Both the position numbers and the translations under genes were made by a program. Below are positions 2,558 to 63,827 of a DNA stretch of 64,000 nt, in pieces (the stretch's first letter is position 1; every line of letters starts with the position of its first letter). Source of the DNA: an uncultured Lentisphaeraceae bacterium (GTDB taxonomy: Bacteria > Verrucomicrobiota > Kiritimatiellia > RFP12 > DVOR01); assembly GCA_937892925.1 (NCBI GenBank), contig CALBHX010000028.1, positions 3,392 to 67,391 of the forward strand, in the 5' to 3' direction. Below the pieces are notes generated by a model. The model was not told the DNA's origin. It did no database searches and saw only the letters and a list, made by a program, of their open reading frames with translations.

Positions 2558-4033
2558 ATGAACGATGTGCTCCGCGAAAAGCTGAAGCACCTGCCCGAAA
2601 AACCCGGGTGCTACCTTTACCGCGACCGCGCCGGAACCATCATCTATGTGGGCAAAGCCGTCAACCTTCGGCGGCGCGTTCAAAGTTACTTCCGCGCCTC
2701 CACCCTGCGTTCCGCGCCCCCCAAGCTCCGAAGCCTCGTTCATCACGTCGAAGACCTCGAAATCCGCATCGTCCGCAACGAAGCCGAAGCCCTTCTTACC
2801 GAAAGCCACCTCATCAAAACCTATCGGCCGCGTTTCAACATCCTCCTGCGCGATGATAAACGCTACCTAGCGCTCCGCCCCGCCGCCGACCGCCCCTTTC
2901 CCCGCATCACCCCCTGCCGTATCCGCCGAGACGACGGCGCAGAATATTTCGGCCCTTTTCCCTCCTCCACCATTGTCCACACCGCGCTCGACTTTACCGA
3001 AAAGCGTTTCGGCCTGCGTAAATGCACCGCGCTCACACCATGCCCCGAAGATCACACCCACTGCATGGCCGATATTATCCGTTTCTGTTCCGCTCCCTGC
3101 ATGGGGCGAATTTCCGAGCCCGACTATCGCGCCCGGTTCAATGAAGCATGCGCCTTTTTACGCGGCGATCGCCCTGCCATCATAGAGGAAGTGGCGCAGC
3201 AGATGCGCGAAGCCGCCGCGCGTGAAGATTACGAGCGCGCCGCCCGCCTCCGCGACACCTGGCTGGCGCTCAAAGAGCTCACCCGACAGCGTGCCAAAGC
3301 CCGCCTCACCCCCGCCCTGAAACGCCCCACCGCAGCAGAAGGCTTGGCCGCTTTGGCCGATCTGCTCGCGCTGCCCAAACCCCCGCGTATCATTGAGTGC
3401 TTTGACATCTCCCACCTCATGGGCACCCATACCGTAGCCTCCATGGTTGTGGCTGTAGACGGGCTCCCCGACAAACGCCGTTACCGCCGTTTTCGCATCC
3501 GCACCGTCACCAATGACGATCCTCACGCCATGGCCGAAGTCATCCGCCGCCGTTACACCCGCCTACGCGATGAAGGCGGTGCATTCCCCGACCTGATTCT
3601 CTGCGATGGCGCCGCCCTGCAAGTTCGCGCCGCCCGTGCCGTACTCAAAGAGCTCGGTCTCTTCGAGCTCATCCCCGTAGCCGGGCTAAATGAACACTTC
3701 GAAGAAATTGTCCTAGATGACGGGCGCCCAAACCTCATCCTCCCCCGAGACAGCGCCGCACTGCAAATCCTCATCCGCCTGCGCGATGAAGCACACCGTT
3801 TCGCCATCACCTTCAACCGCTCGCTTCGCCTGCGGGCACTCCGGGAATCCGTTCTGGACGAGATTCCCGGTATCGGCCCCATCCGCAAACGGCAGCTCCT
3901 GACCGCCTTCGGATCTGTCCGCCGCCTGGCTGATGCCGAGGAATCGGTTATCGCCGCCCAGCCCGGAATCACCCCCGAGCTCGCCCACGCCATCAAGACC
4001 GCCCTCAAAGCGCGTGTCCACGACCCGGATTGA
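2558..4033 (+). CDS. uvrC: excinuclease ABC subunit C (UvrC), short form of 491 aa
   Basis: N-terminal GIY-YIG motif (GCYLYRD...IIYVGKAVNLRRRV), a central UVR-like region, and a C-terminal HhH motif (IPGIGPIRKRQLLTAFGSVRRL). Confidence 0.85.
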   Translation: MNDVLREKLKHLPEKPGCYLYRDRAGTIIYVGKAVNLRRRVQSYFRASTLRSAPPKLRSLVHHVEDLEIRIVRNEAEALLTESHLIKTYRPRFNILLRDDKRYLALRPAADRPFPRITPCRIRRDDGAEYFGPFPSSTIVHTALDFTEKRFGLRKCTALTPCPEDHTHCMADIIRFCSAPCMGRISEPDYRARFNEACAFLRGDRPAIIEEVAQQMREAAAREDYERAARLRDTWLALKELTRQRAKARLTPALKRPTAAEGLAALADLLALPKPPRIIECFDISHLMGTHTVASMVVAVDGLPDKRRYRRFRIRTVTNDDPHAMAEVIRRRYTRLRDEGGAFPDLILCDGAALQVRAARAVLKELGLFELIPVAGLNEHFEEIVLDDGRPNLILPRDSAALQILIRLRDEAHRFAITFNRSLRLRALRESVLDEIPGIGPIRKRQLLTAFGSVRRLADAEESVIAAQPGITPELAHAIKTALKARVHDPD

Positions 4034-4596: not shown

Positions 4597-6913
<2,317 letters not shown>

Positions 6914-6919
6914 ATCCGC

Positions 6920-8452
6920 TTACTTCCTGCCGTTTTTCTGGAAGGGCGATAAGGCTTCACGCATCAACGCATCCAACAACGCCTTCAGTTCATCATCCAA
7001 TTCCGGCTTCGCTGCAAACCGCTTACTGTAGGTCTGCCCCGTCAAGGAGTCTTCTATCGCAACATGAAGCGCCTTCAATGCCTCCGGGATCTGCGAAACC
7101 GACACCTGAACCAACCACTTATTCGTGCCGGCATACAACACAGCCACCTGCTCTGCGGCAGACATCGGCCGTCCCGGCATCTGGCGAATGGAATACATCA
7201 ATGCCCGCCCGATGGAAAGCTGCTCCAACGTCCCGGCGTCCAGATCCGAAGCGAAGGATGTGAACGCTTCCAACTCGCGGTATTGCGCCAACAGCACCCG
7301 AAGCGGCCCGGCCACCTTCTTCATGGCTTTAAGCTGGGCATCGCCCCCCACACGGCTAACCGAGATGCCGGGGTTGATCGCCGGCCGCTGCCCCTCGTGA
7401 AAAAGCCCTGCCTCCAGAAAGATCTGCCCATCGGTAATGGAAATCACATTCGTTGGAATATATGCGGAGATATCATTCGCCTGCGTTTCCACAATCGGGA
7501 GCGCCGTCAGGCTGCCGCCGCCCTTTGCATCCGAAAGCTGCGCGGCGCGTTCCAACAGGCGGCTGTGAAGATAGAAGACGTCTCCGGGATAGGCCTCACG
7601 TCCCGGCGGGCGGCGCAGCAGCAGAGACATCTGCCGGTAAGCCTGCGCATGTTTGGTCAAGTCGTCATAAATTACGAGTGCATGTTCCCCGCGGTTCATC
7701 CAGAACTCCGCCATCGCACATCCAGCATACGGCGCCAGATATTGAAGCGGCGCAGGCTCCGAAGCGCCGGCCAGCACAATCGTTGTATAGGCCATCGCGC
7801 CCGCATCTTCCAGCTGCTTGTAAAGTGCGGCCACTGTTGAAAGCTTTTGGCCTATGGCCACGTAGAAACAATGAACCCCCGACCCCTTCTGATTCAGAAT
7901 CGCATCCACCGCAATCGTGGTCTTGCCTGTCTTTCGATCGCCGATGATCAGCTCACGCTGACCGCGGCCAATCGGCGTAAGTGCATCAATCGCCACCAAC
8001 CCCGTCTGCATGGGCGTGTCTACGTTGCGGCGTTCAATAATCGAGGGCGCCGCCGCTTCAACCGGCATCTGCACCGTGGCCGCAATGCCCCCTTTGCCAT
8101 CCAGAGGCCGCCCCAGCGCATCCACTACGCGCCCCGTGAGCGCTTCGCCCGCCGGCACCGACACCACACGCCCCGTTCGATGAAAGCGATCCCCTTCACG
8201 AACGTTCACATCACTGTCGAGCACCGCCACGCCCACCACATCTTCTTCCAGATTGAGCGCCAGCCCCGCCGTGCCATTCTCCGTCTCAACCAGCTCGTTA
8301 TACATCACGTGCGAAAGCCCGTCCACACGGGCAATCCCATCGCCCACACTCAATACCGTGCCAAACTCCGAGGTATCAATGGGCTTATCCACCGTCTCCA
8401 TCCGCTGGCGAAGCAATGCAGAGAGTTCGTCTGGTTTCAATTGCGTCTTCAT
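6920..8452 (-). CDS. atpA: F1Fo ATP synthase alpha subunit
   Basis: Walker [19 protein letters not shown] and the alpha-subunit N-terminal beta-barrel ([16 protein letters not shown]). Confidence 0.95.
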
Positions 8453-8461
8453 GAAAAGTCC

Positions 8462-9031
8462 TCAAAACAAGCTGTTGCCCGGCTGCTCCGGCTGATGAAA
8501 CGCGCGGGAAAGCCGCCGAAGCCGCCCTGTAAGCGAGCCGTCAATCTGCAAATCCCCCGCGCGGATCACCACGCCAGCCCCCAATTCCGGCGCCACGCGA
8601 ATCGTAATCTCCGTTTTCGGACCATACGCTTCCCGAGCACGCGCCGTCAATAACGCGACCGTCTTCGGCGAAGGATTCGCCGCAAACTCCAACAACACAG
8701 CCCGCCGCCCCTCGGCCATATCCGCCAGCCGACGGAACACCTGCAGCACATGCGGCAGAGCCGCCATCAAACCATTTTCAGAAAGCGCCTCCAGCAACAC
8801 CCGCGTCGGCCGGCTTACCGTCTCGCCCCAAAGCGCGTCCACCACCTCTCGGTGCTTAGCGCGGGGCATGCTGTGAAACGTCCGCGCCCACTCCCGAAAC
8901 ACCTCCGAGCCCTGCCACTGCGCCTCCAACGCAGCGGCATCTGCCCGAACATCCTCCAGGATGCCCAACGCCTGGGCGGCCTGAACCCATGCCCGGGCAT
9001 ACGGGCGTGCAGCTTCCTCTTCGTTATACAT
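8462..9031 (-). CDS. atpH: F1Fo ATP synthase delta (OSCP) subunit
   Basis: 189-aa OSCP-like protein with C-terminal TVRVAPELGAGVVIRAGDLQIDGSLTGRLRRL; position lies between atpF and atpA. Confidence 0.85.
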   Translation of the reverse strand: MYNEEEAARPYARAWVQAAQALGILEDVRADAAALEAQWQGSEVFREWARTFHSMPRAKHREVVDALWGETVSRPTRVLLEALSENGLMAALPHVLQVFRRLADMAEGRRAVLLEFAANPSPKTVALLTARAREAYGPKTEITIRVAPELGAGVVIRAGDLQIDGSLTGRLRRLSRAFHQPEQPGNSLF

Positions 9032-54216: not shown

Positions 54217-54304
54217 GGAGAGGTGGCAGAGCGGTCGAATGCGGCGGTCTTGAAAACCGTTGAATCGCAAGATTCCGGGGGTTCGAATCCCTCCCTCTCC
54301 GCCA
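54217..54304 (+). tRNA. tRNA-Ser (anticodon UGA), class II with long variable arm
   Basis: Acceptor GGAGAGG/CCTCTCC, anticodon stem GCGGT/ACCGT with loop CTTGAAA, long variable arm, T-arm GGGGGTTCGAATCCCTC, and 3' GCCA. Confidence 0.85.
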
Positions 54305-54618: not shown

Positions 54619-55671
54619 GTGGTTAATGATAACGTTCGAATAAAAACCGACTCAGGCGAGAGAGTAGACGCGTTGGCGCCTGTCATTGTTTCCGCTAGCC
54701 GCTCTACCGACATCCCGGCATTCTACGCCAGGTGGTTCTTTAACCGACTCAAACGCGGATACTGTGTCTGGTACAATCCCTTTAATCAAAAACCCTCATA
54801 CGTTTCGTTTGCCAAATGCAAGGTCATTGTATTTTGGACAAAAAACCCTGCCCCGATCATACCTTTTCTCCCTGAACTTGATCGTCGAGGAATTCACTAT
54901 TATTTCCAAGTCACACTTAACGATTATGTCCGTGAAGGGTTGGAGCCGAATGTTCCTTCGATTGAAGAACGGGTGGAGACCTTCAAGCGGCTTTCGGCGC
55001 TGATTGGGAAAGAGCGCGTGATTTGGCGCTTCGATCCTCTAATCCTGACCGAGACCCTCACGCCTAGAGAAATACTTAAGAAAATCTGGCGTGTAGGCAA
55101 CCTCATCAAAGGAACTACTGAAAAATTGGTGTTCAGTTTTGTCGATATCTCCGCTTATAAGAAAGTCCAACATAACTTAGTCAGGGGAACGAAGGCTTTC
55201 AACTTCGGCAATGTGATGTCAGCAGAAATGACAACAGATCAGCGAAGAGAAGTTGTCGAGGGGCTTGTTAAGATTCGGCAGTCATGGTCTCGTGAGGGGT
55301 GGCACGTAACAATGGCAACGTGTGGAGAGGCGTTCGATTACTCGGCATATGGCGTGGAGAGGAATTGCTGTATTGATGGGTCTCTGATGGAGCGCGTGTT
55401 TGGCGACGACAAGGGGCTTGTCTCCTTTCTAAAGACTGGAAAGATTGCAGAACCCGACTTGTTTGGAGCCTATCCTTCACTGCCTGTTGTCGGAAAGAAT
55501 CTCAAGGATAAGGGACAGCGTAAGGCGTGTGGTTGTATGATAAGTAAAGATATTGGTCTGTATAACACATGCCGCCATTTCTGTATCTATTGCTATGCAA
55601 ATACCAGCAGAACGTGCGTACTGAAGAACGTTGCAAGACACCGTGACGAGAACGAAAGTATCATTTGGTAA
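54619..55671 (+). CDS. DUF1848-family protein with C-terminal Cys cluster
   Basis: GTG start, the only in-frame start after a stop 1 codon upstream. Conserved N-terminal VIVSASRSTDIPAFYARWF and C-terminal CGCMISKDIGLYNTCRHFCIYCYAN. GC is about 46%, well below the surrounding genome. Family name recalled from memory. Confidence 0.55.
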   Translation: MVNDNVRIKTDSGERVDALAPVIVSASRSTDIPAFYARWFFNRLKRGYCVWYNPFNQKPSYVSFAKCKVIVFWTKNPAPIIPFLPELDRRGIHYYFQVTLNDYVREGLEPNVPSIEERVETFKRLSALIGKERVIWRFDPLILTETLTPREILKKIWRVGNLIKGTTEKLVFSFVDISAYKKVQHNLVRGTKAFNFGNVMSAEMTTDQRREVVEGLVKIRQSWSREGWHVTMATCGEAFDYSAYGVERNCCIDGSLMERVFGDDKGLVSFLKTGKIAEPDLFGAYPSLPVVGKNLKDKGQRKACGCMISKDIGLYNTCRHFCIYCYANTSRTCVLKNVARHRDENESIIW

Positions 55672-56097: not shown

Positions 56098-57732
56098 CTA
56101 GGCTCTGACAATTTCCTTGAATTTCAGGCCGAACCTGGCGAGGAACTTGGTCAGACGATCCGAGTCGTTAGCGTTTGCTTTGGCCTTTCGCGAGATGGCG
56201 AAGAGTCGTTTCGCAGCGTCCGCCGCCGTGTCGCAGCAGCGGCAGACGGCGATCACATGAGCGAGCATCGCAATGTCGGTGCTGTCGAAGCGGGAAAAGA
56301 AGTCCGATCCGAGGACCCGCGACAACTCGTCGAAGTTTGCGAATGGGATGACCGTTGCTTTCGGATCGCAGCGGATGGCTGGCCGTTGGGCTCTTCTGCT
56401 TCGGGCGATTTCGTCTTCGACAAGATCCTCGGTGATGCGTCCGCCATCGGAAAGCGTGGCCATACGGACGACCATTGCGTTCAGGTCGCGGAAGTTTCCC
56501 GGCCAGAGATTGTCGGGATCGAGCGCGAAGGCAAGAAAACGTTCGCGAGCCTCCTTATTGAATGTGATGTGTTTCCCGGACTTCGAAGTAAAATTGTCGA
56601 GTTCGTAGGTGAGGTTGGGCTCGATATCTTCGCGGCGTTCTGCGAGACCTGGGAGCTCAAAGCTCCAGAGGTTGATACGGACGAGCAGGTCTGCACGGAA
56701 TTTCCTGTCGGCGACATCGATCGAGAGATCACGGTTCGTTCCGCAGATGATCTGGAAGTCGCTGTGTTCGTCATCCGTTGCACCCAGTGGACGAAAGGTC
56801 TTCTCCTCAATGGCTTTAAGAAGCATGGCCTGAGCCTCGAGGGGGAGCTCCCCGATCTCGTCGAGAAAGAGGATGCCGCCATCAGCCTCCTTGAGATAGC
56901 CATCGTGGTTCGCCTCTGCGCCGGTGAATGCGCCTTTTTTATAACCGAAGAGAGCCGCCTTTGCGAGTTCTCCGCCAAGCGTTGCACAGTTGACATCAAC
57001 GAATCTGCCGCCGACTTGTCCGTTCTGTTTCTTCAGCTTGAAGATTTGGTTGGCAAGCTGGCTCTTGCCTACGCCGGTGGGCCCGGTCAGGAGGATAGGA
57101 TCGGAGGAACGAGCCGAGACGCGTTCGATGGTCTCGATAAGTTTGTTAAACGCCTTATTCCTCGTTTTAATGCCTCTTTTGAGGAACGAGAGGTCGTCCT
57201 GCCGTTCACCCTCGAAACGCTTGGCGAGCTTGTCGTAGCGAGAGAGGTCGAGGTCGATGATGCTGCAGGTGCCCTTGGAGTCGTTCGAGTGCCGGACGTG
57301 CCCCTCCTTGGGCGATGTCTGGATGAGCTTGCCGGGTAAATGCCGGGATTCGGCCAGGAGAAAGAGGCAGATCTGCTCAACATGTGAGCCGGTTGACATA
57401 TGGATGTAGTACTGGGTTCGCTCCTCGTGAAAGCATGGGCTTTTGGCGTAGTCGTAGAACTTTGCGTAGACTTCCTCGAAATCCCACGGGTCTTTCAGGT
57501 CGATGACGTCGAAGACCACTTCCGTTCCCGGCGAGACAGCGTTGATGTCGCGTTTGATTCGTTCTGCGAGCGTCGAAAATTCCGCATTGAAGATGAGGTG
57601 CAGCTCATCGATCGAAAGCTCGTCTTGTTGAACGAGGCCGATGTTGGGACGCCAAGTACCCCAACGCCCCGGACCGTGACCGCCGCGAGCATCCTTCTGT
57701 GTACCGAGGACGGAGATGACTGTGGTTTTCAT
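56098..57732 (-). CDS. rtcR: sigma54-dependent transcriptional activator RtcR (N-terminal CARF-type sensor, AAA+ sigma54-interaction domain, C-terminal HTH)
   Basis: N-terminus closely resembles E. coli RtcR (AVSPGTEVVFDVIDLKDPWDFEEVYA, IHMSTGSHVEQICLFLLAESRHLPGKLIQTSP). Central domain has Walker A LTGPTGVGKS, GAFTGA and GGILFLDEIGEL; it lies divergent from the rtcAB operon. Confidence 0.9.
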   Translation of the reverse strand: MKTTVISVLGTQKDARGGHGPGRWGTWRPNIGLVQQDELSIDELHLIFNAEFSTLAERIKRDINAVSPGTEVVFDVIDLKDPWDFEEVYAKFYDYAKSPCFHEERTQYYIHMSTGSHVEQICLFLLAESRHLPGKLIQTSPKEGHVRHSNDSKGTCSIIDLDLSRYDKLAKRFEGERQDDLSFLKRGIKTRNKAFNKLIETIERVSARSSDPILLTGPTGVGKSQLANQIFKLKKQNGQVGGRFVDVNCATLGGELAKAALFGYKKGAFTGAEANHDGYLKEADGGILFLDEIGELPLEAQAMLLKAIEEKTFRPLGATDDEHSDFQIICGTNRDLSIDVADRKFRADLLVRINLWSFELPGLAERREDIEPNLTYELDNFTSKSGKHITFNKEARERFLAFALDPDNLWPGNFRDLNAMVVRMATLSDGGRITEDLVEDEIARSRRAQRPAIRCDPKATVIPFANFDELSRVLGSDFFSRFDSTDIAMLAHVIAVCRCCDTAADAAKRLFAISRKAKANANDSDRLTKFLARFGLKFKEIVRA

Positions 57733-57946
57733 GGGAACGTATCATACCAAAACTTCATTCATAAAATATCTGAGATGATATGAAATATCTAATTAGCATA
57801 ACCGCTTTTTGACGATTCAAATCTACAGAAGGATTTTAAGACCGATCATAGCAATACGACATCATCTGCTATTTTCAGCATCGGGATGCTTGAACCGAAA
57901 TATTCTGCCGTGCCGACGCCTCTAGCGTCGATTATCTTTGTTGTTT

Positions 57947-57962
57947 TGGCACGTGTCTTGCA
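57947..57962 (+). promoter_or_regulatory. sigma54 (-24/-12) promoter TGGCAC-GTGTC-TTGCA driving the AAA-ATPase/rtcAB operon
   Basis: Exact match to the TGGCAC-N5-TTGCW consensus in the rtcR/operon divergent intergenic region, about 105 nt upstream of the first gene. Confidence 0.75.
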
Positions 57963-58069
57963 ATAAGTGGGCGTCATCGAAACCGCTCAATGGTCAAGCA
58001 TCTCACTTTTTATGAGACCGCCGCTGGTTCGAATTCAGCCACCCAAGCCAATTGAAGGAGAAATTGAAG

Positions 58070-59176
58070 ATGAAGGTCATCAAGACCAACAACACGATTC
58101 ATCTCTACCGGGATGACGTTGAGACGTACGACCGAATCCCCGTCGGGACGTACACAATATGTTTCGCCAAGAATGTCGGATTCTATCTTACGACCAGGAA
58201 CGACATGGCCGTGGAAGAGAAGGTATACGGCTGCCATCCCGAAAAAGCTCGAAAGGTTCTGGCCTCGTTCAGGGATTTCAGCCGGAGCCTTGGCGTGATC
58301 ATGAGCGGAGCCAAGGGGATCGGGAAATCGATATCGGCCAAGCTGATCGCGAAAGAAGCGATTTTCGGCGGAATGCCGGTCATCGTCTGCGACCAGTACG
58401 TCCCCGGCATCGCATCGTTCATCGAATCCATCGAGCAGGAGGTGATGATCCTGTTCGATGAATTCGACAAGGTCTTCGCGAAGACGGATGACGAGAACCC
58501 GCAGGCAAGCATGCTGAGCCTCTTCGACGGAACCGCTGTCGGGAAAAAGCTGTATGTGGTAACGTGCAACGCTCTGACCGGACTCAACGACTACCTCGTC
58601 AACCGCCCAGGACGATTCCACTACCACTTCCGATTCGACTATCCGGACGCGGACGGCATCCGCGAATATCTCCGCGACAAGGTGTCAGAAGAAGGCCGCG
58701 GACAAATCGAAGACGTCGTAAACTTCTCCGAGAAGGTCAACCTCAACTACGATTGCCTGCGGTCAATTGCGTTCGAGATCAATCATGGGGCCACGTTTGC
58801 AGAGGCGATCAGAGACCTCAACATCGTCAGCCTGGGCGAAGAGCGTTACACGCTCGTGCTGCGTATGACGAACGGGGCAACGTTTCAGGCGGCTCCCGTC
58901 TGCATCGACCTATTCGACAAGGGCGCGCGTGCACGCTTCTGGATGAAACGCTGCGGATCCGGCCGCGGATGCTATGCGGAGTTCTGCGTTGGGGACGTGC
59001 AGCTCGACGTGACGAACGGCAAACTCTCGGTCGTGAAGGAGTTCATCAGCGTTGACAACCCCTACGACGACAATGAGGACGACTGCGGGAACCGTCTGCG
59101 TTGGGAGCGGGAAATGCATCCCGAAAGCCTGACAATCTACCAGAACCGGGGAAAGTCGCTCCACTATATCCTGTAA
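58070..59176 (+). CDS. classic-clade AAA+ ATPase of unknown function, first gene of the RtcR-controlled operon
   Basis: Walker A GAKGIGKS, Walker B VMILFDEFDK, sensor-1 VVTCN, and SRH/Arg-finger NRPGRFHYHFRFDYP. N-terminal ~75-aa domain and C-terminal ~110-aa Cys-containing domain (CGSGRGCYAEFC) are unassigned. ATG 58070 has a GAAGGAG RBS. Confidence 0.75.
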   Translation: MKVIKTNNTIHLYRDDVETYDRIPVGTYTICFAKNVGFYLTTRNDMAVEEKVYGCHPEKARKVLASFRDFSRSLGVIMSGAKGIGKSISAKLIAKEAIFGGMPVIVCDQYVPGIASFIESIEQEVMILFDEFDKVFAKTDDENPQASMLSLFDGTAVGKKLYVVTCNALTGLNDYLVNRPGRFHYHFRFDYPDADGIREYLRDKVSEEGRGQIEDVVNFSEKVNLNYDCLRSIAFEINHGATFAEAIRDLNIVSLGEERYTLVLRMTNGATFQAAPVCIDLFDKGARARFWMKRCGSGRGCYAEFCVGDVQLDVTNGKLSVVKEFISVDNPYDDNEDDCGNRLRWEREMHPESLTIYQNRGKSLHYIL

Positions 59177-59189
59177 AGGATCGGCGTCG

Positions 59190-60101
59190 GTGCAACAAAA
59201 ATGGAATGAGGACATGAAGAAGGATTTTGACATACACCAAGGGCATGGCAATCACAACGGCTGTCTATGCGAGCCGGAAAAGGACGGGGCGTTCCTTTCC
59301 GAATGGATCCCAAGAAGCATCACGGAAAGCGAGGTGATCGGAGGGACGAAAGAGCCCATCGCGTGCAACTTCGGCGATAATCTGCCGAAGGAAATGCCGA
59401 TGTTGTTCCTCGGCGATACGAAGGCTCCGCTTCGTCTCGGGCTCCTGCTCGCCGTCAAGGAAGCCGGGAAGCAGAACACACTGGTGTCGGTCTACCCGGA
59501 ACACGATGGTGCGGAAGTACGTGTTAAGATCACAGCGATCCACGAATGGGCGGCGGGCGTTGAAGCAACGCTTGAGGGCGAGGTTCTCGACGAGTCGGCG
59601 CGCGAAATCGCGTTCTTCGACACACGCTACGCTTTGAACAAGGGCCGCTACAAAATCGGGAAGACATACGTCTTCCGGCTTTCGGCGTTTGCGTACAGCG
59701 CCGACGTCCTTCCGGAGGAGAACCGCGAGTTCCGCTTTGAGGGCGAGGACGCGGTCAAGCATCGCGAACGCTGTGGGCAGGAACAGGAATATGACGAAGC
59801 CGGGAAACCGAAGCCCGTGGTCTTCCGGATTGAAAGCGCGGTGGCATTCCTACCGAAGTGGGGGCCGTATCCGGATGACGCCGAGTTCCAGTCCCCCGCG
59901 TTCGGGGACGTGAGCGAGTTCACAGCGTTCGGCACGGACTTCTACCGGATCCATGTCGCGATCGCCCGCGATGAAGAAGACGTCGTCATTCCGCTGATCG
60001 CGCGAAAGTCGCTCTTCTCGGTCGCGCCAAAGACGGACGATCCGGTGTACGGAATGCTGTGGCTCCAGGGATACTGTCCGGACGTGGAAAGCGCGGTGTA
60101 G
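59190..60101 (+). CDS. hypothetical protein (303 aa), second gene of the RtcR-controlled operon
   Basis: ORF lies 13 nt after the ATPase gene and ends 3 nt before rtcA; no recognisable domain by eye. Starts at GTG 59190, alternative ATG 59214. Confidence 0.55.
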   Translation: MQQKWNEDMKKDFDIHQGHGNHNGCLCEPEKDGAFLSEWIPRSITESEVIGGTKEPIACNFGDNLPKEMPMLFLGDTKAPLRLGLLLAVKEAGKQNTLVSVYPEHDGAEVRVKITAIHEWAAGVEATLEGEVLDESAREIAFFDTRYALNKGRYKIGKTYVFRLSAFAYSADVLPEENREFRFEGEDAVKHRERCGQEQEYDEAGKPKPVVFRIESAVAFLPKWGPYPDDAEFQSPAFGDVSEFTAFGTDFYRIHVAIARDEEDVVIPLIARKSLFSVAPKTDDPVYGMLWLQGYCPDVESAV

Positions 60102-60104
60102 AAC

Positions 60105-61136
60105 ATGGCGGCTGTCATCACGATAGACGGATCGATAGGCGAAGGCGGAGGACAGATCCTCCGCACGGCTCTTTCGCTGAGCGCGATAACAAAAACGAAC
60201 ATCGCGCTTGGGAAGATCCGGGCGGGGCGCGAGAAGCCGGGGCTGAGGCGTCAGCATCTAACGTGCGTCCGCGCCGTGGCGGAGATCTGCGGAGCAACCG
60301 TGTCAGGAGACGAGATAGGCTCGCAGGAACTCGTATTCGCCCCTGGGAAAATCAAGGCTGGGAACTACCGATTCGATGTTGGCACGGCGGGCAGCGTGAC
60401 GCTCGTCGCGCAGACCACCATCCCGGTGCTCCTGATGGCGGACGGCGTTTCAACGGTAGCGATCACCGGCGGAACCCACGTGCCGTTCGCCCCGATCTGG
60501 GAGTTTTTCGAATCCTGCTACCTGCCGGAACTTCGACGCATGGGCGCAAAGATCGAGGCCAAGCTCGGCTCCTACGGGTTCTCTCCGGCAGCAGGTGGCG
60601 TCGTCGAGCTGCGTGTCTGGCCGTTTGATTCAAACAGGAAGCTCGAATCATACGAGCTGACAGATCTCGGTGTGTACCGTGGCGGCTCGGTCATCGGCGT
60701 CGTCTCCGCGATCCCGAAGTCGATTGCCGAAGCCGAGGTCGGAATCGTGTTGAGGCAGTTTCCAAAACTAGACCTGACGCCCGAAGTGCGCACCATCGAT
60801 TCCTTCGGCCCCGGTAACTACTGTTACGCGAAGCTCGACTACGAGAGAGCATCGGTTGTCTTCTCATCCGTTGGGGCGTTCGACAAGTCGCGCAAGACGG
60901 TCGGCAACGAGGTTGTGCAGGGCGTGAGGAAATTTCTGAAATCCGGCAAGGCTTGCGAGAAACATCTTGCGGATCAGTTACTGGTGCCCCTTGTGGCTCT
61001 TACCGGAAGACATTGCGAAGAAATGTTTCGTGTTGTCTGGTACGACGACTGGACGCTAGGCATACAGAAGAAAACGAAACACTACGAGACGAACAAAAAC
61101 GTCATACAGATGTTCAATATCGACGATACTATCTAG
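60105..61136 (+). CDS. rtcA: RNA 3'-terminal phosphate cyclase
   Basis: Strong similarity to E. coli RtcA N-terminus (IDGSIGEGGGQILRTALSLSAIT, IRAGREKPGLRRQHLTCVRAVAEICGA, GSQELVFAPG). Confidence 0.9.
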   Translation: MAAVITIDGSIGEGGGQILRTALSLSAITKTNIALGKIRAGREKPGLRRQHLTCVRAVAEICGATVSGDEIGSQELVFAPGKIKAGNYRFDVGTAGSVTLVAQTTIPVLLMADGVSTVAITGGTHVPFAPIWEFFESCYLPELRRMGAKIEAKLGSYGFSPAAGGVVELRVWPFDSNRKLESYELTDLGVYRGGSVIGVVSAIPKSIAEAEVGIVLRQFPKLDLTPEVRTIDSFGPGNYCYAKLDYERASVVFSSVGAFDKSRKTVGNEVVQGVRKFLKSGKACEKHLADQLLVPLVALTGRHCEEMFRVVWYDDWTLGIQKKTKHYETNKNVIQMFNIDDTI

Positions 61137-61153
61137 ACAAGAGGTATTTGGGA

Positions 61154-62389
61154 ATGAAGTGGGAAAAGTTCGAAAATGGGTATTCAGTGCCTGTAAAGAG
61201 CTGGTGCGAGAACTGTGAGGATGGAGTCATGAAGCAGGTGCTCAATCTTGTGAAGCATCCGGCAGTGTTCGACCACGTAGCGCTCATGCCGGACGCACAC
61301 CTGGGCTACGGCATGCCGATCGGCGGTGTGATCGCGTGCGATGGCGCCGTGATCCCGGCGGCGGTCGGCGTCGATATCGGCTGCGGCATGATCGCAGTAG
61401 AAACGGACATCTCGGCGGAACGCTTCGCGAACATGTCGTTCCGGCGGGCCTTTCAAGAGAAACTCAAGGAGCGAATCCCAGTCGGCGAGGGTGTGCCGCA
61501 CCGTAAGGCTCAGTACTGGAAGGGCTTCGAGGAGTACACAGCTAACAACGGCATGCGCTCAAATCTCTGGCCATCGAAGCTCGATCGGCTGAACCTCGGT
61601 ACGCTTGGCGGAGGCAACCACTTCATCGAACTTCAGAGGTCAACAGCGCTCGACGGGAATGGCGCGCCGGAGGGCGGATCGAAAATCTGGCTCATGATCC
61701 ACTCGGGATCGCGCAATCTCGGCAAGCGCATCGAGGAGTACTACCACAAGATCGCGAACCGTCTCTGCACGCGTTTCCGCGTGCCGTTGGCAGATCCCAA
61801 TCTCGCGTTCCTGCCGATCGCGGAGGCTGACGGTCACAACTACTTCACGGACATGCTTTTCGCGCTCCGCTACGCAAAGGAGAATCGCCGCCGGATGATG
61901 GAGGCAATGAAGGCCACCGTCGCCGAGTTCGTGCCGAGCGTGAACTTCCTGCGCACAATCGACATCCATCACAACTATGCTGTTTGCGAGGAACACTTCG
62001 GAAAGAAGGTGTTTGTTCACCGCAAAGGCGCAACATCGGCGAAACTGAACGAGATTGGGATCATCCCAGGCTCGATGGGCACGGCCTCATATATCGTTCG
62101 CGGCCTCGGGAATCCTGATTCGTTCATGTCATGCTCGCACGGTGCGGGCCGCCGCATGAGCCGGATTGCGGCCTCAACCAACCTGACGGTCGAAGCGTGC
62201 GACAAGGCGATGAACGGCATCGTGTACGAGCGCTGGCACACATACAAGGGCTTCGGCAAGTCCAAGCATCGGCTCGACCTCTCGGAGGCTCCGCAAGCTT
62301 ACAAAGACATCGAAGCCGTGATTGCGTCCGAACGCGATCTCGTCGAGCCACGCGTCCGTCTTGTCCCCCTCGCTTCACTGAAGGGATGA
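61154..62389 (+). CDS. rtcB: RNA-splicing ligase RtcB
   Basis: RtcB metal-binding motifs (MPDAHLGYGMPIGGV, GGGNHFIEL, HNYA, SHGAGR). ATG 61154 has an AAGAGG RBS; the track start at 60953 is an upstream extension overlapping rtcA. Confidence 0.9.
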   Translation: MKWEKFENGYSVPVKSWCENCEDGVMKQVLNLVKHPAVFDHVALMPDAHLGYGMPIGGVIACDGAVIPAAVGVDIGCGMIAVETDISAERFANMSFRRAFQEKLKERIPVGEGVPHRKAQYWKGFEEYTANNGMRSNLWPSKLDRLNLGTLGGGNHFIELQRSTALDGNGAPEGGSKIWLMIHSGSRNLGKRIEEYYHKIANRLCTRFRVPLADPNLAFLPIAEADGHNYFTDMLFALRYAKENRRRMMEAMKATVAEFVPSVNFLRTIDIHHNYAVCEEHFGKKVFVHRKGATSAKLNEIGIIPGSMGTASYIVRGLGNPDSFMSCSHGAGRRMSRIAASTNLTVEACDKAMNGIVYERWHTYKGFGKSKHRLDLSEAPQAYKDIEAVIASERDLVEPRVRLVPLASLKG

Positions 62390-62694: not shown

Positions 62695-62784
62695 AGAAGA
62701 ATGATGAAGCGTATGCTGCAAGCCCATAATGGTATGTTCACTTGAACGTCGGCGCACGGGTTATGCAAGCTTCGGTTCGCGGTT

Positions 62785-62813
62785 GACTTAAGGTACGTCA
62801 AGGGCGTACAATG
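62785..62813 (+). promoter_or_regulatory. sigma70-type promoter TTGACT-N18-TACAAT with overlapping palindrome TTGAC-N9-GTCAA (candidate autoregulatory operator)
   Basis: Located 45 nt upstream of the HTH gene start; the -35 hexamer is part of the inverted repeat TTGACTTAAGGTACGTCAA. Confidence 0.45.
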
Positions 62814-62857: not shown

Positions 62858-63151
62858 ATGCGCGAAGATAGCGAATTCCTACACGGAACAAAAACGGCCT
62901 CTCGTACTTGGTCGGCCGAGGATGGTAAGCATATTGAGAGCAAAGAGGACGTGCAGACTTTGCGCCATACGTTTGGCGTAAGTCAACCCGTATTCGCGGA
63001 GTTCATGTGCGTCAGTGTCAACACGCTGCAGAATTGGGAACAGGGGCGCCGCCAGCCAACAGGAGCGGCGCGGATCCTTTTGACAAATGCCTGCAGCAGC
63101 CGACACTTTCCCGCAAAACTATGGCGGAAAGTTTCTCTGACATGCGATTGA
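62858..63151 (+). CDS. HTH XRE-family, HigA-like type II antitoxin-type DNA-binding protein
   Basis: C-terminal HTH with the characteristic FGVSQPVFAEFMCVSVNTLQNWEQGRRQPTGAARILL motif. Confidence 0.65.
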   Translation: MREDSEFLHGTKTASRTWSAEDGKHIESKEDVQTLRHTFGVSQPVFAEFMCVSVNTLQNWEQGRRQPTGAARILLTNACSSRHFPAKLWRKVSLTCD

Positions 63152-63215
63152 CCCGATAAGGCCACATTGTGATTCTTCTGCACGACACTCGTCAATCTAA
63201 GCATGAATTACCTAT

Positions 63216-63827
63216 ATGGAAGGATATCCGGTGGATGCCACTTTCACAGCAGATGCGCTCGCACAAGCGTTTATTGAGTACAAGGAACGCCTGATGGCGC
63301 TCGTGAAGAAGAACCTCAATCCGATTCTTCTCAAGCGGTTGTCGTATGAGGACGTCCTCCAGTCCGCCTACGAGGCGGCTGCGAAGCGGCTTGACTATTT
63401 TTCCTCAGCCGCGGACGTACCGGTCTACTTCAAACTCCGCACCATTCTCCTCCAGACGATTACCGATCTCTCTCGCCGCCATCTTCAGTCAGAGAGCCGC
63501 GATGCATACAAAGAGGTGAAGGTGAGGGGTGAAGGTGACGATGGGAATCAATCCGGCGTGGTGATCGAGAATCTGGCGGCGAACGTGACTTCTCCAGTTT
63601 CGCGAATGGATCGGGATGAACGGCATGCTCTTCTCCGTCGTGCCGTGGACGCGCTTGCGAAGGCAGATCGGCAGATTATTATTCTCCGACATTTTGACGC
63701 CTTCGAGAATTCGCAATGCGCCGACATTCTCGGCATCGAACCGAAGGCGGCATCCATCCGTTATGTCCGAGCTCTCGAGCGTCTTCAGAAGAAGCTGATG
63801 GAACTCTCATACTTCAGAAAGGCATGA
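63216..63827 (+). CDS. ECF-type sigma-70 family RNA polymerase sigma factor
   Basis: Region 2-like (LSYEDVLQSAYEAA) and region 4 HTH (RQIIILRHFDAFENSQCADILGIEPKAASIRYVRALERLQKKL). Confidence 0.8.
   Translation: MEGYPVDATFTADALAQAFIEYKERLMALVKKNLNPILLKRLSYEDVLQSAYEAAAKRLDYFSSAADVPVYFKLRTILLQTITDLSRRHLQSESRDAYKEVKVRGEGDDGNQSGVVIENLAANVTSPVSRMDRDERHALLRRAVDALAKADRQIIILRHFDAFENSQCADILGIEPKAASIRYVRALERLQKKLMELSYFRKA

Follow-up and report, generated by a model that had tools for sequence, protein, structure and literature searches.

In a 64,000-nucleotide stretch of contig CALBHX010000028.1 from an uncultured Lentisphaeraceae bacterium, hereafter the window, a gene for the RNA repair regulator RtcR stands divergent to four tightly packed genes, two of which are rtcA and rtcB. 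On the minus strand, rtcR (56098 to 57732) encodes a 544-amino-acid activator with a CARF domain, a sigma54-interaction AAA+ domain, and a helix-turn-helix (HTH). The plus strand carries, in order, a −24/−12 sigma54 promoter that matches the pattern TGGCAC-N5-TTGCA exactly (TGGCACGTGTCTTGCA, 57947 to 57962), a degenerate tRNA-like leader element (57985 to 58039), a gene for a classic-clade AAA+ ATPase (58070 to 59176), a gene for an all-beta protein of 303 amino acids with OB-like barrels and no named family, which we call U303 (59190 to 60101), rtcA for the RNA 3′-terminal phosphate cyclase (60105 to 61136), and rtcB for the 3′-phosphate/5′-OH RNA ligase (61154 to 62389). In the open reading frame scan, the gaps between the four genes are 13, 3, and 17 nucleotides (nt), and the whole is one tightly packed unit that begins at or just before the tRNA-like RNA. 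Some start codons allow a choice. The ATPase has 368 residues from the ATG at 58070, which has GGAG 8 nt upstream, or 374 from the TTG at 58052. U303 may start at the GTG at 59190 (AAGGA 9 nt upstream) or at the ATG at 59214, the commonest start among its homologs. The listed frame of rtcB opens earlier, at a TTG at 60953, and the ATG of MKWEKF lies 17 nt past the rtcA stop; given this gap and the shared strand, rtcA and rtcB are probably co-transcribed. An earlier sequence-only reading had described the divergent regulator, the promoter, and the four packed genes, and we reproduced all of its frames and gaps. Its inventory was right about promoter and genes, but it overlooked the tRNA-like RNA that follows the promoter.

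Similarity searches against Pfam, NCBIfam, PADLOC (v2), and PHROGs place the operon in the Rtc RNA repair system, with RtcR, a sigma54 promoter, RtcA, and RtcB all present. RtcR matched NF038308 (RNA_repair_RtcR) at 698.4 bits (cutoff 650), PF06956 at 234 bits, PF00158 (Sigma54_activat) at 172 bits, AAA_lid_14, and the PADLOC profile RtcR--CARF_AAA_HTH at 727 bits. RtcA matched TIGR03399 at 300.6 bits (cutoff 250) and PF01137 at 223.7 bits, and RtcB matched PF01139 at 349.6 bits across the full profile. The RtcA translation contains an HLADQ motif, which presumably bears the nucleotidylated histidine, and in RtcB we find what we take to be its characteristic motifs (DAH, GCGM, GGGNHF, HSGSR, HHNY, HRKGAT, and HGAGR). 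Together with the promoter, the matches to NF038308, TIGR03399, and PF01139 bear out the earlier claim of a true RtcR/sigma54/RtcA/RtcB system. The promoter itself is credible because it lies between rtcR and the operon and because the identical exact consensus recurs at the equivalent position in seven related loci (L007, L008, L022, L023, L026, L029, and L042 of our comparison). The pattern by itself is not significant: although it is the sole sigma54-type match in the window with one mismatch tolerated, shuffled windows yield 1.44 one-mismatch sites each. From the usual 12-nt spacing after the GC of the −12 element, transcription is predicted to start near 57973. A 6-bp inverted repeat (57914 to 57930) lies immediately upstream of the promoter, and a search downstream of rtcB found no intrinsic terminator.

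We assign the ATPase to the classic AAA clade from its match to PF00004 (34.6 bits; cutoff 21.2). An N-terminal beta domain (residues ~1 to 45) precedes the AAA core (~70 to 250) and a variable, beta-rich C-terminal domain (~255 to 368). In an alignment of 36 homologs, Walker A (SGxKGIGKS), Walker B (FDEFDK), and sensor-1 (TCN) are invariant, as is the arginine-finger region NRPGRFHYHFRF (NRPGRF, second region of homology). The same homologs conserve a [YF][IV]PGIA motif where classic AAA proteins have pore loop 1; its [YF][IV]PG portion corresponds in the alignment to the Afg2 loop K[YF]VGE but has an inserted proline. The closest solved relatives in the Protein Data Bank (PDB) are Afg2/Drg1, VAT, Cdc48, and FtsH, which along with the RPGRF region upholds the earlier assignment to this clade. 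The protein may form a hexamer that threads its substrate.

The ATPase belongs to a large family, with 2,547 matches. Residues 1 to 292 align with positions 1 to 294 of the 363-position profile phrog_2376 (E 1.1e-103, 348 bits), and relatives occur in 394 deposited phage genomes, including Herelleviridae, Lactococcus phage P1048, and rV5-like phages. Some relatives of the ATPase belong to the early region of a phage, others to stretches that look like the leading region of a conjugative element. Homologs at 47 to 53% identity lie in contigs that resemble phages or integrative and conjugative elements (ICEs), none with rtc genes. The phage ATPases of this family, those of uncultured gut phages included, share its motifs and reach 40 to 53% identity to the window's protein among closer members; they differ in being phage genes without U303 or rtc neighbors. 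The tie between ATPase and rtc that had been proposed from the window holds in that the operon order recurs in ~15 loci, and fails in that the family is not rtc specific and is largely one of phages and mobile elements. In Enterococcus phage vB_OCPT_Bop (L062, 6001 to 7092), a homolog stands within a tRNA array with tRNA genes immediately on either side, and in Lactococcus phage P1048 (L061, 5001 to 6077) one lies directly upstream of the array's first tRNA gene. We rejected the notion that phage homologs are generally embedded in tRNA arrays. The association is true only for these two phages and was not seen in Bcp1, Staphylococcus S-CoN_Ph3, Lactobacillus SAC12B, phiWec188, UAB_1, or the gut phage-like and ICE-like contigs L001 to L006, in a comparison that took in annotated or ARAGORN-scanned genomes and left out MT835544.

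U303 found no match in Pfam, NCBIfam, PADLOC, or PHROGs, and a profile of its alignment found only noise among PDB sequences. Its predicted structure is confident (pLDDT 90) and all-beta, with OB-like barrels, and is similar to OB folds that bind nucleic acids, among them tRNA anticodon-binding domains. Foldseek matches of the model in the PDB had TM scores of ~0.17 and were discarded as meaningless. The sequence-only reading had found nothing nameable in this protein, which remains correct as to family, but the predicted barrels supply a recognizable fold element after all. A word-seeded search retrieved 96 close relatives, one named Kiritimatiellae, and a profile search of 1.84 billion representatives returned 1,022 clusters with the domain at E ≤1e-3. 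Of the top 140 new representatives, half exceed 400 amino acids and are fusions; in the extra regions of ten fusion proteins, Pfam found only Sel1 and a weak ASCH match. U303 has a conserved N-terminal QGHGDH motif. Across 146 representatives, the conserved residues are mostly aromatic residues, glycine, and proline, plus E125, and H19, H22, E119, and K151 are conserved at ~75 to 80%. This pattern of conservation is closer to that of a binding module than to that of an obvious enzyme. It is absent from INPHARED phages and from IMG/VR. A 275-amino-acid gene that follows the phage ATPase in L001 was considered as a relative and rejected (hhalign probability 0.4%).

Between the sigma54 promoter and the ATPase start codon, the tRNA-like element of the window comprises a D arm, a perfect 5-bp anticodon-like arm (UCUCA-CUUUUUA-UGAGA), a perfect T arm (GCUGG-UUCGAAU-UCAGC), and a GCCA tail that ends by 58048. 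Against RF00005 it reached 26.3 bits, short of the gathering score (29), with an E value of 0.001 when 201 nt were searched and 0.044 for 8.5 kb. Its homolog in L013 and L027, which stands before the AAA+ gene, scored 54.9 bits. The Rfam scan recognized neither a Y RNA nor any further family in the operon. The cloverleaf is not complete, and we do not regard the element as a bona fide tRNA gene.

Related loci carry tRNA-like RNAs in comparable positions. In four of them, the predicted sigma54 start and the beginning of the RNA are only a few nucleotides apart: L022 (3859 to 3932, 44.4 bits on Rfam; promoter at 3829), L026 (1800 to 1868, 39.8 bits; promoter at 1770), L029 (1208 to 1262, 30.0 bits; promoter at 1172), and L042 (1426 to 1494; promoter at 1397), the last of which ARAGORN called tRNA-Trp and which scored 35.8 bits on the tRNA-Sec model without reaching its gathering score of 47. 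Others stand directly before AAA+ or U303 genes, with two copies in L025 (1786 to 1853 and 2595 to 2672; 50.1 and 45.7 bits), one in L024 directly upstream of U303 (5992 to 6069; 45.7 bits), and two each in L013 and L027 (in L013, 5905 to 5974 and 6708 to 6779; 48.9 and 54.9 bits). L030 likewise has two copies (2192 to 2259 and 5076 to 5143; 52.8 and 37.6 bits). One class is distinguished by an extended terminal stem of 10 to 12 bp, a very short D loop, and the tRNA-Trp-like loop CUCCAAA. The anticodon-like loops are variable, being Trp- (CUCCAAA), Arg-, Asn-, Cys-, or Lys-like, and some are aberrant, with a GAAA tetraloop in L022, a 5-nt loop in L024 and L025, and an oversized loop in L026. 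In an eight-sequence alignment of the extended-stem class (A3), pairing extends to 91% of cells, and compensatory changes occur in 16 of the 25 pairs; none of 500 shuffles reached this, and slid controls gave 37 to 55% pairing. We classify the leader elements as tRNA mimics or degenerate tRNAs and not as ordinary tRNA genes, because the two real tRNAs of the window score 58 to 67 bits on Rfam, compared with 26.3 for its leader element.

A census of genomes and metagenome contigs, annotated by tblastn, clustering, and Pfam, yielded 53 loci that encode U303 relatives. U303 lies inside an rtc operon in 15 of them, usually behind the AAA+ gene, and the co-occurrence with rtc genes, for which the earlier reading had proposed a neighborhood census, is thereby observed. 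Five of these loci are genome derived (L007 to L010 and L013) and are labeled Verrucomicrobia/Verrucomicrobiota, Kiritimatiellae, or Candidatus Spyradenecus, one being just "uncultured bacterium"; the other ten come from metagenomes and have no taxonomic label. The order RtcR, sigma54 promoter, AAA+, U303, RtcA, RtcB is found in L007 to L010, L013, L022, L023, L026 to L028, L030, and L032. Across the rtc-operon loci, U303 identity drops as low as 48% and RtcR identity is ~70%. Because gene order is conserved in ~15 related loci, the tie of ATPase and U303 to rtc does not seem accidental. Furthermore, in a rough neighbor-joining tree the operon ATPases form two lineages. Those of the window, L008, and L022 are nested in a clade from gut phages and mobile elements, and the remaining ones make up a distinct, deeper clade. 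The same operon slot appears to have received an ATPase of the phrog_2376 type at least twice, and its occupation by two different lineages is an argument that the position requires a member of this family.

Several of these sister operons have additional components. In L013 (4144 to 5723) and L027 (3777 to 5356), RtcR is separated from the remainder of the operon by inserted genes for a HipB-like HTH protein and a HipA-family kinase (PF07804, 151 bits), which puts a toxin targeting tRNA synthetases within an RNA repair operon. L024 (3735 to 5270) encodes a 511-amino-acid protein weakly resembling Ro60 vWA/Rsr (Pfam 32.9 bits; NCBIfam Rsr 28 bits, cutoff 900), upstream of a 153-amino-acid protein, the tRNA-like RNA, and U303 in the same operon. 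The 153-amino-acid protein, probably a coiled coil (MKK..IARALKEKNR.AGRL...), is conserved in L009 (6061 to 6522), L010, L013, L024, L025, L027, and L032, and its gene is located between two tRNA-like RNAs in seven sister operons; it has no match in Pfam or NCBIfam and is absent from the window. In L009 (6540 to 6700), and likewise in L010 and L032, a spacer of ~290 nt separates this gene from the AAA+ gene. The 5′ and 3′ ends of the L009 spacer can pair as a long stem (GTCACA..CTACATCT / AGATGGAGTGATGTGAC), reminiscent of a Y-RNA-like hairpin.

U303 also occurs apart from rtcAB, in part among other RNA repair genes. L029 has a sigma54 promoter, tRNA-like RNA, AAA+, and U303 with no rtcAB downstream, and in L042 a gene for RlaP lies directly upstream of the same series. 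In L046 the pair is followed by an ankyrin-repeat protein, and RtcB genes lie near U303 in L043 and L052. L070 (314 to 6108) encodes an 817-amino-acid U303 fusion, then DUF6578, a polynucleotide kinase (PNK)-like P-loop kinase, and a Thg1-like 3′-5′ polymerase, which by its gene content is a different RNA-end-repair cassette. Elsewhere, U303 fusions stand directly downstream of other PF00004 ATPases, in L071 (30% core identity, E 9e-22) adjoining ThsB_TIR and in L076 to L078 followed by WYL. In L016 (1121 to 6068), U303 is followed by an unknown 513-amino-acid protein and an 830-amino-acid Hsp70-like ATPase, and the three may constitute a module; in L053 (348 to 3359) the unknown protein has 705 amino acids, and L014 was grouped with these loci. 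ADP-ribosylglycohydrolases adjoin U303 genes in L068 and L073. Outside sigma54 operons, U303 genes have no adjoining tRNA-like RNA, except for ordinary tRNA genes near L050 and L051. No PADLOC model fits the non-rtc U303 proteins or fusions. The suggestion that the pair assists RNA repair keeps its rtc link, but homologs also occur without rtc genes, beside restriction-modification, TIR or WYL, Hsp70-like, and other RNA repair genes.

We tentatively favor, with somewhat less than even confidence, an expanded Rtc RNA-damage response operon in which the ATPase and U303 are a substrate-handling accessory that acts ahead of RtcA and RtcB, a mechanism drawn from genomic context and predicted fold. 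U303 would be the RNA-recognition subunit, binding single-stranded or tRNA-shaped RNA; its targets could be the ends of broken tRNA or rRNA, the tRNA-like RNA of the operon itself, or both. The AAA+ hexamer would spend ATP on stripping proteins from such RNAs or on remodeling the RNA-protein complex. Candidates for the stripped proteins would be a ribotoxin, a synthetase, an elongation factor, or ribosomal proteins. Broken ends exposed in this way would then be healed and sealed by RtcA and RtcB. The tRNA-like leader, where intact, might be a partner RNA or a decoy, and the ATPase may have been exchanged with phage or mobile-element relatives.

Beyond the conserved gene order, several lines of evidence support this reading. 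The U303 model resembles nucleic-acid-binding OB folds, and covarying tRNA-like RNAs directly follow the sigma54 promoter. U303 recurs beside RNA repair enzymes, namely RlaP (L042), the PNK-like kinase and Thg1 (L070), and RtcB (L043 and L052). Its recurrence behind other classic AAA+ proteins (L071 and L076 to L078) and near an Hsp70-like ATPase (L016) points to a partnership of a binder with a remodeling ATPase. Inserts in sister operons likewise concern the biology of tRNA or RNA-protein complexes, as with HipBA (L013 and L027) and the Ro60-vWA-like gene (L024). There are also precedents. RtcR operons encode tRNA mimics of the YrlA type, and that of Salmonella includes Ro60 along with its tRNA-like Y RNAs (PMC4201824); in Anabaena, rtcB shares its regulation with a tRNA array, for which a role as back-up or sponge was proposed (PMC8421152). 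The CARF domain of RtcR binds tRNA 5′ halves that end in a 2′,3′-cyclic phosphate (PMC7790460), and this domain is also bound by RtcA and by RtcB (PMC9650030). Other accessories of RtcB include PrfH with RtcB2 (PMC9223846), archease (PMC3973293), and RlaP, which is present in the RtcR-RtcB-RlaP-RtcA operons of Pseudomonas (PMC12776372). The proposed module would serve RtcAB as Ro60 with tRNA-like Y RNA, PrfH with RtcB2, or archease serve other operons, from different parts.

How the operon departs from known systems is clearest by comparison. The RNA repair operon of the E. coli type (rtcR/rtcBA), reportedly described by Genschik in 1998 and by Tanaka and Shuman in 2011, shares the divergent RtcR (CARF, sigma54 AAA+, HTH), the −24/−12 promoter, RtcA, and RtcB. 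In the window, by contrast, rtcA precedes rtcB, and the promoter is separated from rtcA by a tRNA-like leader and genes for two additional proteins. The rsr-yrlBA-rtcBA operon of Salmonella (PMC4201824, PMC7790460) is similar in joining an RNA-binding protein and a tRNA-mimicking RNA with RtcB and RtcA under RtcR and sigma54, if U303 does bind RNA, and the sister locus L024 has its weak Ro60-vWA-like gene. It differs in that U303 has an unrelated, OB-like predicted fold and in the presence of an AAA+ ATPase. No protein of the window operon matched TROVE or vWA_Ro60 in Pfam, and with no TROVE Ro60 protein the window does not appear to hold a Ro60/Y-RNA module. Moreover, the layout of YrlA is permuted (PMC4201824), whereas the tRNA-like RNAs here have the normal order of D, anticodon, and T arms plus a terminal stem. 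RlaP, PrfH/RtcB2, and archease are comparable as accessory genes inserted in RtcB operons that prepare the substrate or the enzyme for ligation, and RlaP adjoins the AAA+/U303 pair in L042; however, none of the three is an ATP-driven remodeler or is related in sequence or fold to either protein.

We found no description of the AAA+/U303 pair in the literature searched, which did not take in Burroughs and Aravind 2016 (NAR 44:8525). We rate the expanded operon as an undescribed variant of a known repair system, of which an earlier mention is possible. The prior view that the pair is no described Rtc accessory therefore stands as far as the searched literature goes, although its list of known accessories had omitted RlaP (PMC12776372).

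Several observations weigh against a repair accessory. First, the leader element of the window is below the Rfam threshold and has no intact acceptor stem, with at most 4 to 5 acceptor pairs possible. ARAGORN calls no tRNA there, its folding energy is no better than that of shuffles (z 0.05), and it may be a decaying relic. No tRNA-like leader was detected in L007/L023, L028, or L009/L010/L032, and L008 retains only a T-loop-like remnant. Second, L024 and L025 keep U303, RtcA, and RtcB without the AAA+ gene, so that the pair is not obligate. Most of the ~2,500 relatives of the ATPase are in phages or mobile elements without U303 or rtc genes, and it must therefore have a function that needs neither. 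Third, the OB similarity of the U303 model is moderate (Z ≤7.2, 66 to 124 residues aligned), no whole-protein structural analog was found for it, and the conserved residues are mostly structural. Finally, about two-thirds of the U303 homologs in the census have no rtc gene nearby. Some are operonic with MmeI-type enzymes (immediately downstream in L015 and L033; also in L031) or lie near a type I HsdR (L021) and a type III Mod/Res with WYL (L018), and such restriction contexts fit defense better than repair.

A defense-type role is accordingly a live rival to the repair accessory. On this account, which we consider possible though on the unlikely side, the ATPase and U303 are a self-contained conflict module, for defense or abortive infection, that was wired to the RtcR alarm in this clade. 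Fragments of tRNA would signal attack, RtcR would switch the module on, and the ATPase would activate or regulate U303 as a nucleic-acid-directed sensor or effector, with RtcA and RtcB limiting or reversing self-damage. RtcR-like regulators are documented at the head of restriction-modification and defense loci, including CoCoNuT superoperons (PMC4012209, PMC11090510), and a parallel exists in the CoCoNuT and restriction superoperons for which Bell et al. (PMC11090510) proposed control by RtcR: there, cyclic-phosphate RNA fragments would be sensed by a CARF/sigma54 regulator that turns on conflict genes, and OB-fold RNA-binding domains (SmpB-like) are involved. The restriction neighbors of U303 agree with this, as do the TIR and WYL genes beside AAA+ and U303 fusions, the adjoining Hsp70-like genes, and the L029 operon that dispenses with rtcAB. 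The fusion of half of the top family representatives to unknown domains is typical of effector diversification, and the occurrence of AAA+ relatives in phage early and leading-like regions, with a phage origin of the ATPase, points the same way.

Other results count against such a module. The best match of the ATPase in PADLOC v2 was IetA at E 0.005 (14 bits), and a different AAA+ protein, that of L076, reached IetA at E 1.5e-10. Neither the window's ATPase nor U303 had a convincing match there and no IetS-like protease was found, so the pair does not appear to belong to a known anti-phage defense system of PADLOC v2 such as IetAS. U303 has no recognizable nuclease, NADase, or pore domain, its conserved residues form no obvious catalytic set, and it is also tied to enzymes of RNA repair that are not effectors (RlaP, Thg1 with PNK, and RtcAB). 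The RtcR of the window is the rtc-specific equivalog and not a member of the restriction-associated RtcR-like subfamily, and, unlike the CoCoNuT and restriction superoperons, the window has rtcAB and no McrBC, HEPN, or restriction genes.

We think it improbable that the tRNA-like RNA is the key partner, with U303, helped by the ATPase, forming an RNA-protein complex with an operon-encoded tRNA mimic. The mimic would be a decoy or sponge for anticodon nucleases, or it would yield cyclic-phosphate 5′ halves that act back on the CARF domain of RtcR. The position of the RNAs at the sigma54 start or directly before AAA+ and U303 genes, their varied anticodon-like loops and covarying arms, the ligand of RtcR (PMC7790460), and the sponge proposed in Anabaena (PMC8421152) all suit this idea. 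Yet the tetraloop, 5-nt, and oversized loops could not mimic an anticodon-nuclease target, several operons have no detectable element, the copy in the window is degenerate, and U303 outside sigma54 operons lacks such a neighbor, ordinary tRNA genes in L050/L051 excepted. A fuller version, slightly more doubtful still, makes ATPase, U303, and tRNA-like RNA an unrecognized RNA-protein module for tRNA surveillance. Here U303 would represent a new class of proteins, built on OB barrels, that read tRNA shape, and it might have enzymatic activity at the conserved His-x-x-His, Glu, and Lys. The phage-type AAA+ unfoldase would load or recycle it, and the promoter-proximal mimic would be bait, decoy, or RNA antidote. 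An anticodon nuclease that cut the mimic would release cyclic-phosphate 5′ halves sensed by RtcR, which would yield a self-amplifying alarm coupled to repair. If so, the U303 domain in restriction operons would parallel the classic PrrC/EcoprrI arrangement.

Very improbable, finally, is that both genes are mobile-element cargo between the promoter and rtcA, incidentally co-transcribed and with no functional tie to RNA repair; the nesting of the window's AAA+ in a phage and mobile-element clade would fit, and the edge of an island could be marked by a tRNA-Ser gene (54217 to 54304) that lies 1.8 kb beyond rtcR on its 3′ side, but the arrangement is kept in ~15 loci despite substantial divergence, spacers are 3 to 17 nt, there are no junction integrase or repeats, two AAA+ lineages were independently recruited to the same slot, and the same pair stands behind sigma54 promoters elsewhere (L029 and L042).

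If the pair is indeed a substrate-handling accessory, the variant bears on what RtcB repairs in bacteria and on how damaged RNA is found and passed to it, both open questions of the Rtc system. It unites three candidate substrate-handling parts under RtcR, namely an ATP-driven remodeler, an OB-like binder, and a tRNA mimic, which are concrete handles on damaged-RNA recognition upstream of RtcB. It would also give a first functional context to two orphan families, the phrog_2376 ATPases and the U303 domain, the latter with ~1,000 clusters and no database model. More generally, the shared U303 domain links RNA repair loci with restriction and defense islands.

Some features lie around the operon or in single related loci. 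Just past rtcR in the window is a DUF1848 gene (54619 to 55671; 303.8 bits). On the other side, a 470-nt gap 3′ of rtcB contains a sigma70-like promoter (62783 to 62812) and is followed by an HTH gene and a gene for an extracytoplasmic function (ECF)-type sigma factor (62858 to 63827). In the 12-kb contig of L022, a SAM-I/IV riboswitch (8429 to 8535; 48 bits) lies downstream of rtcB, and four exact sigma54 consensus sites on the plus strand (3640, 3829, 9466, and 11512) suggest a larger RtcR/sigma54 regulon.

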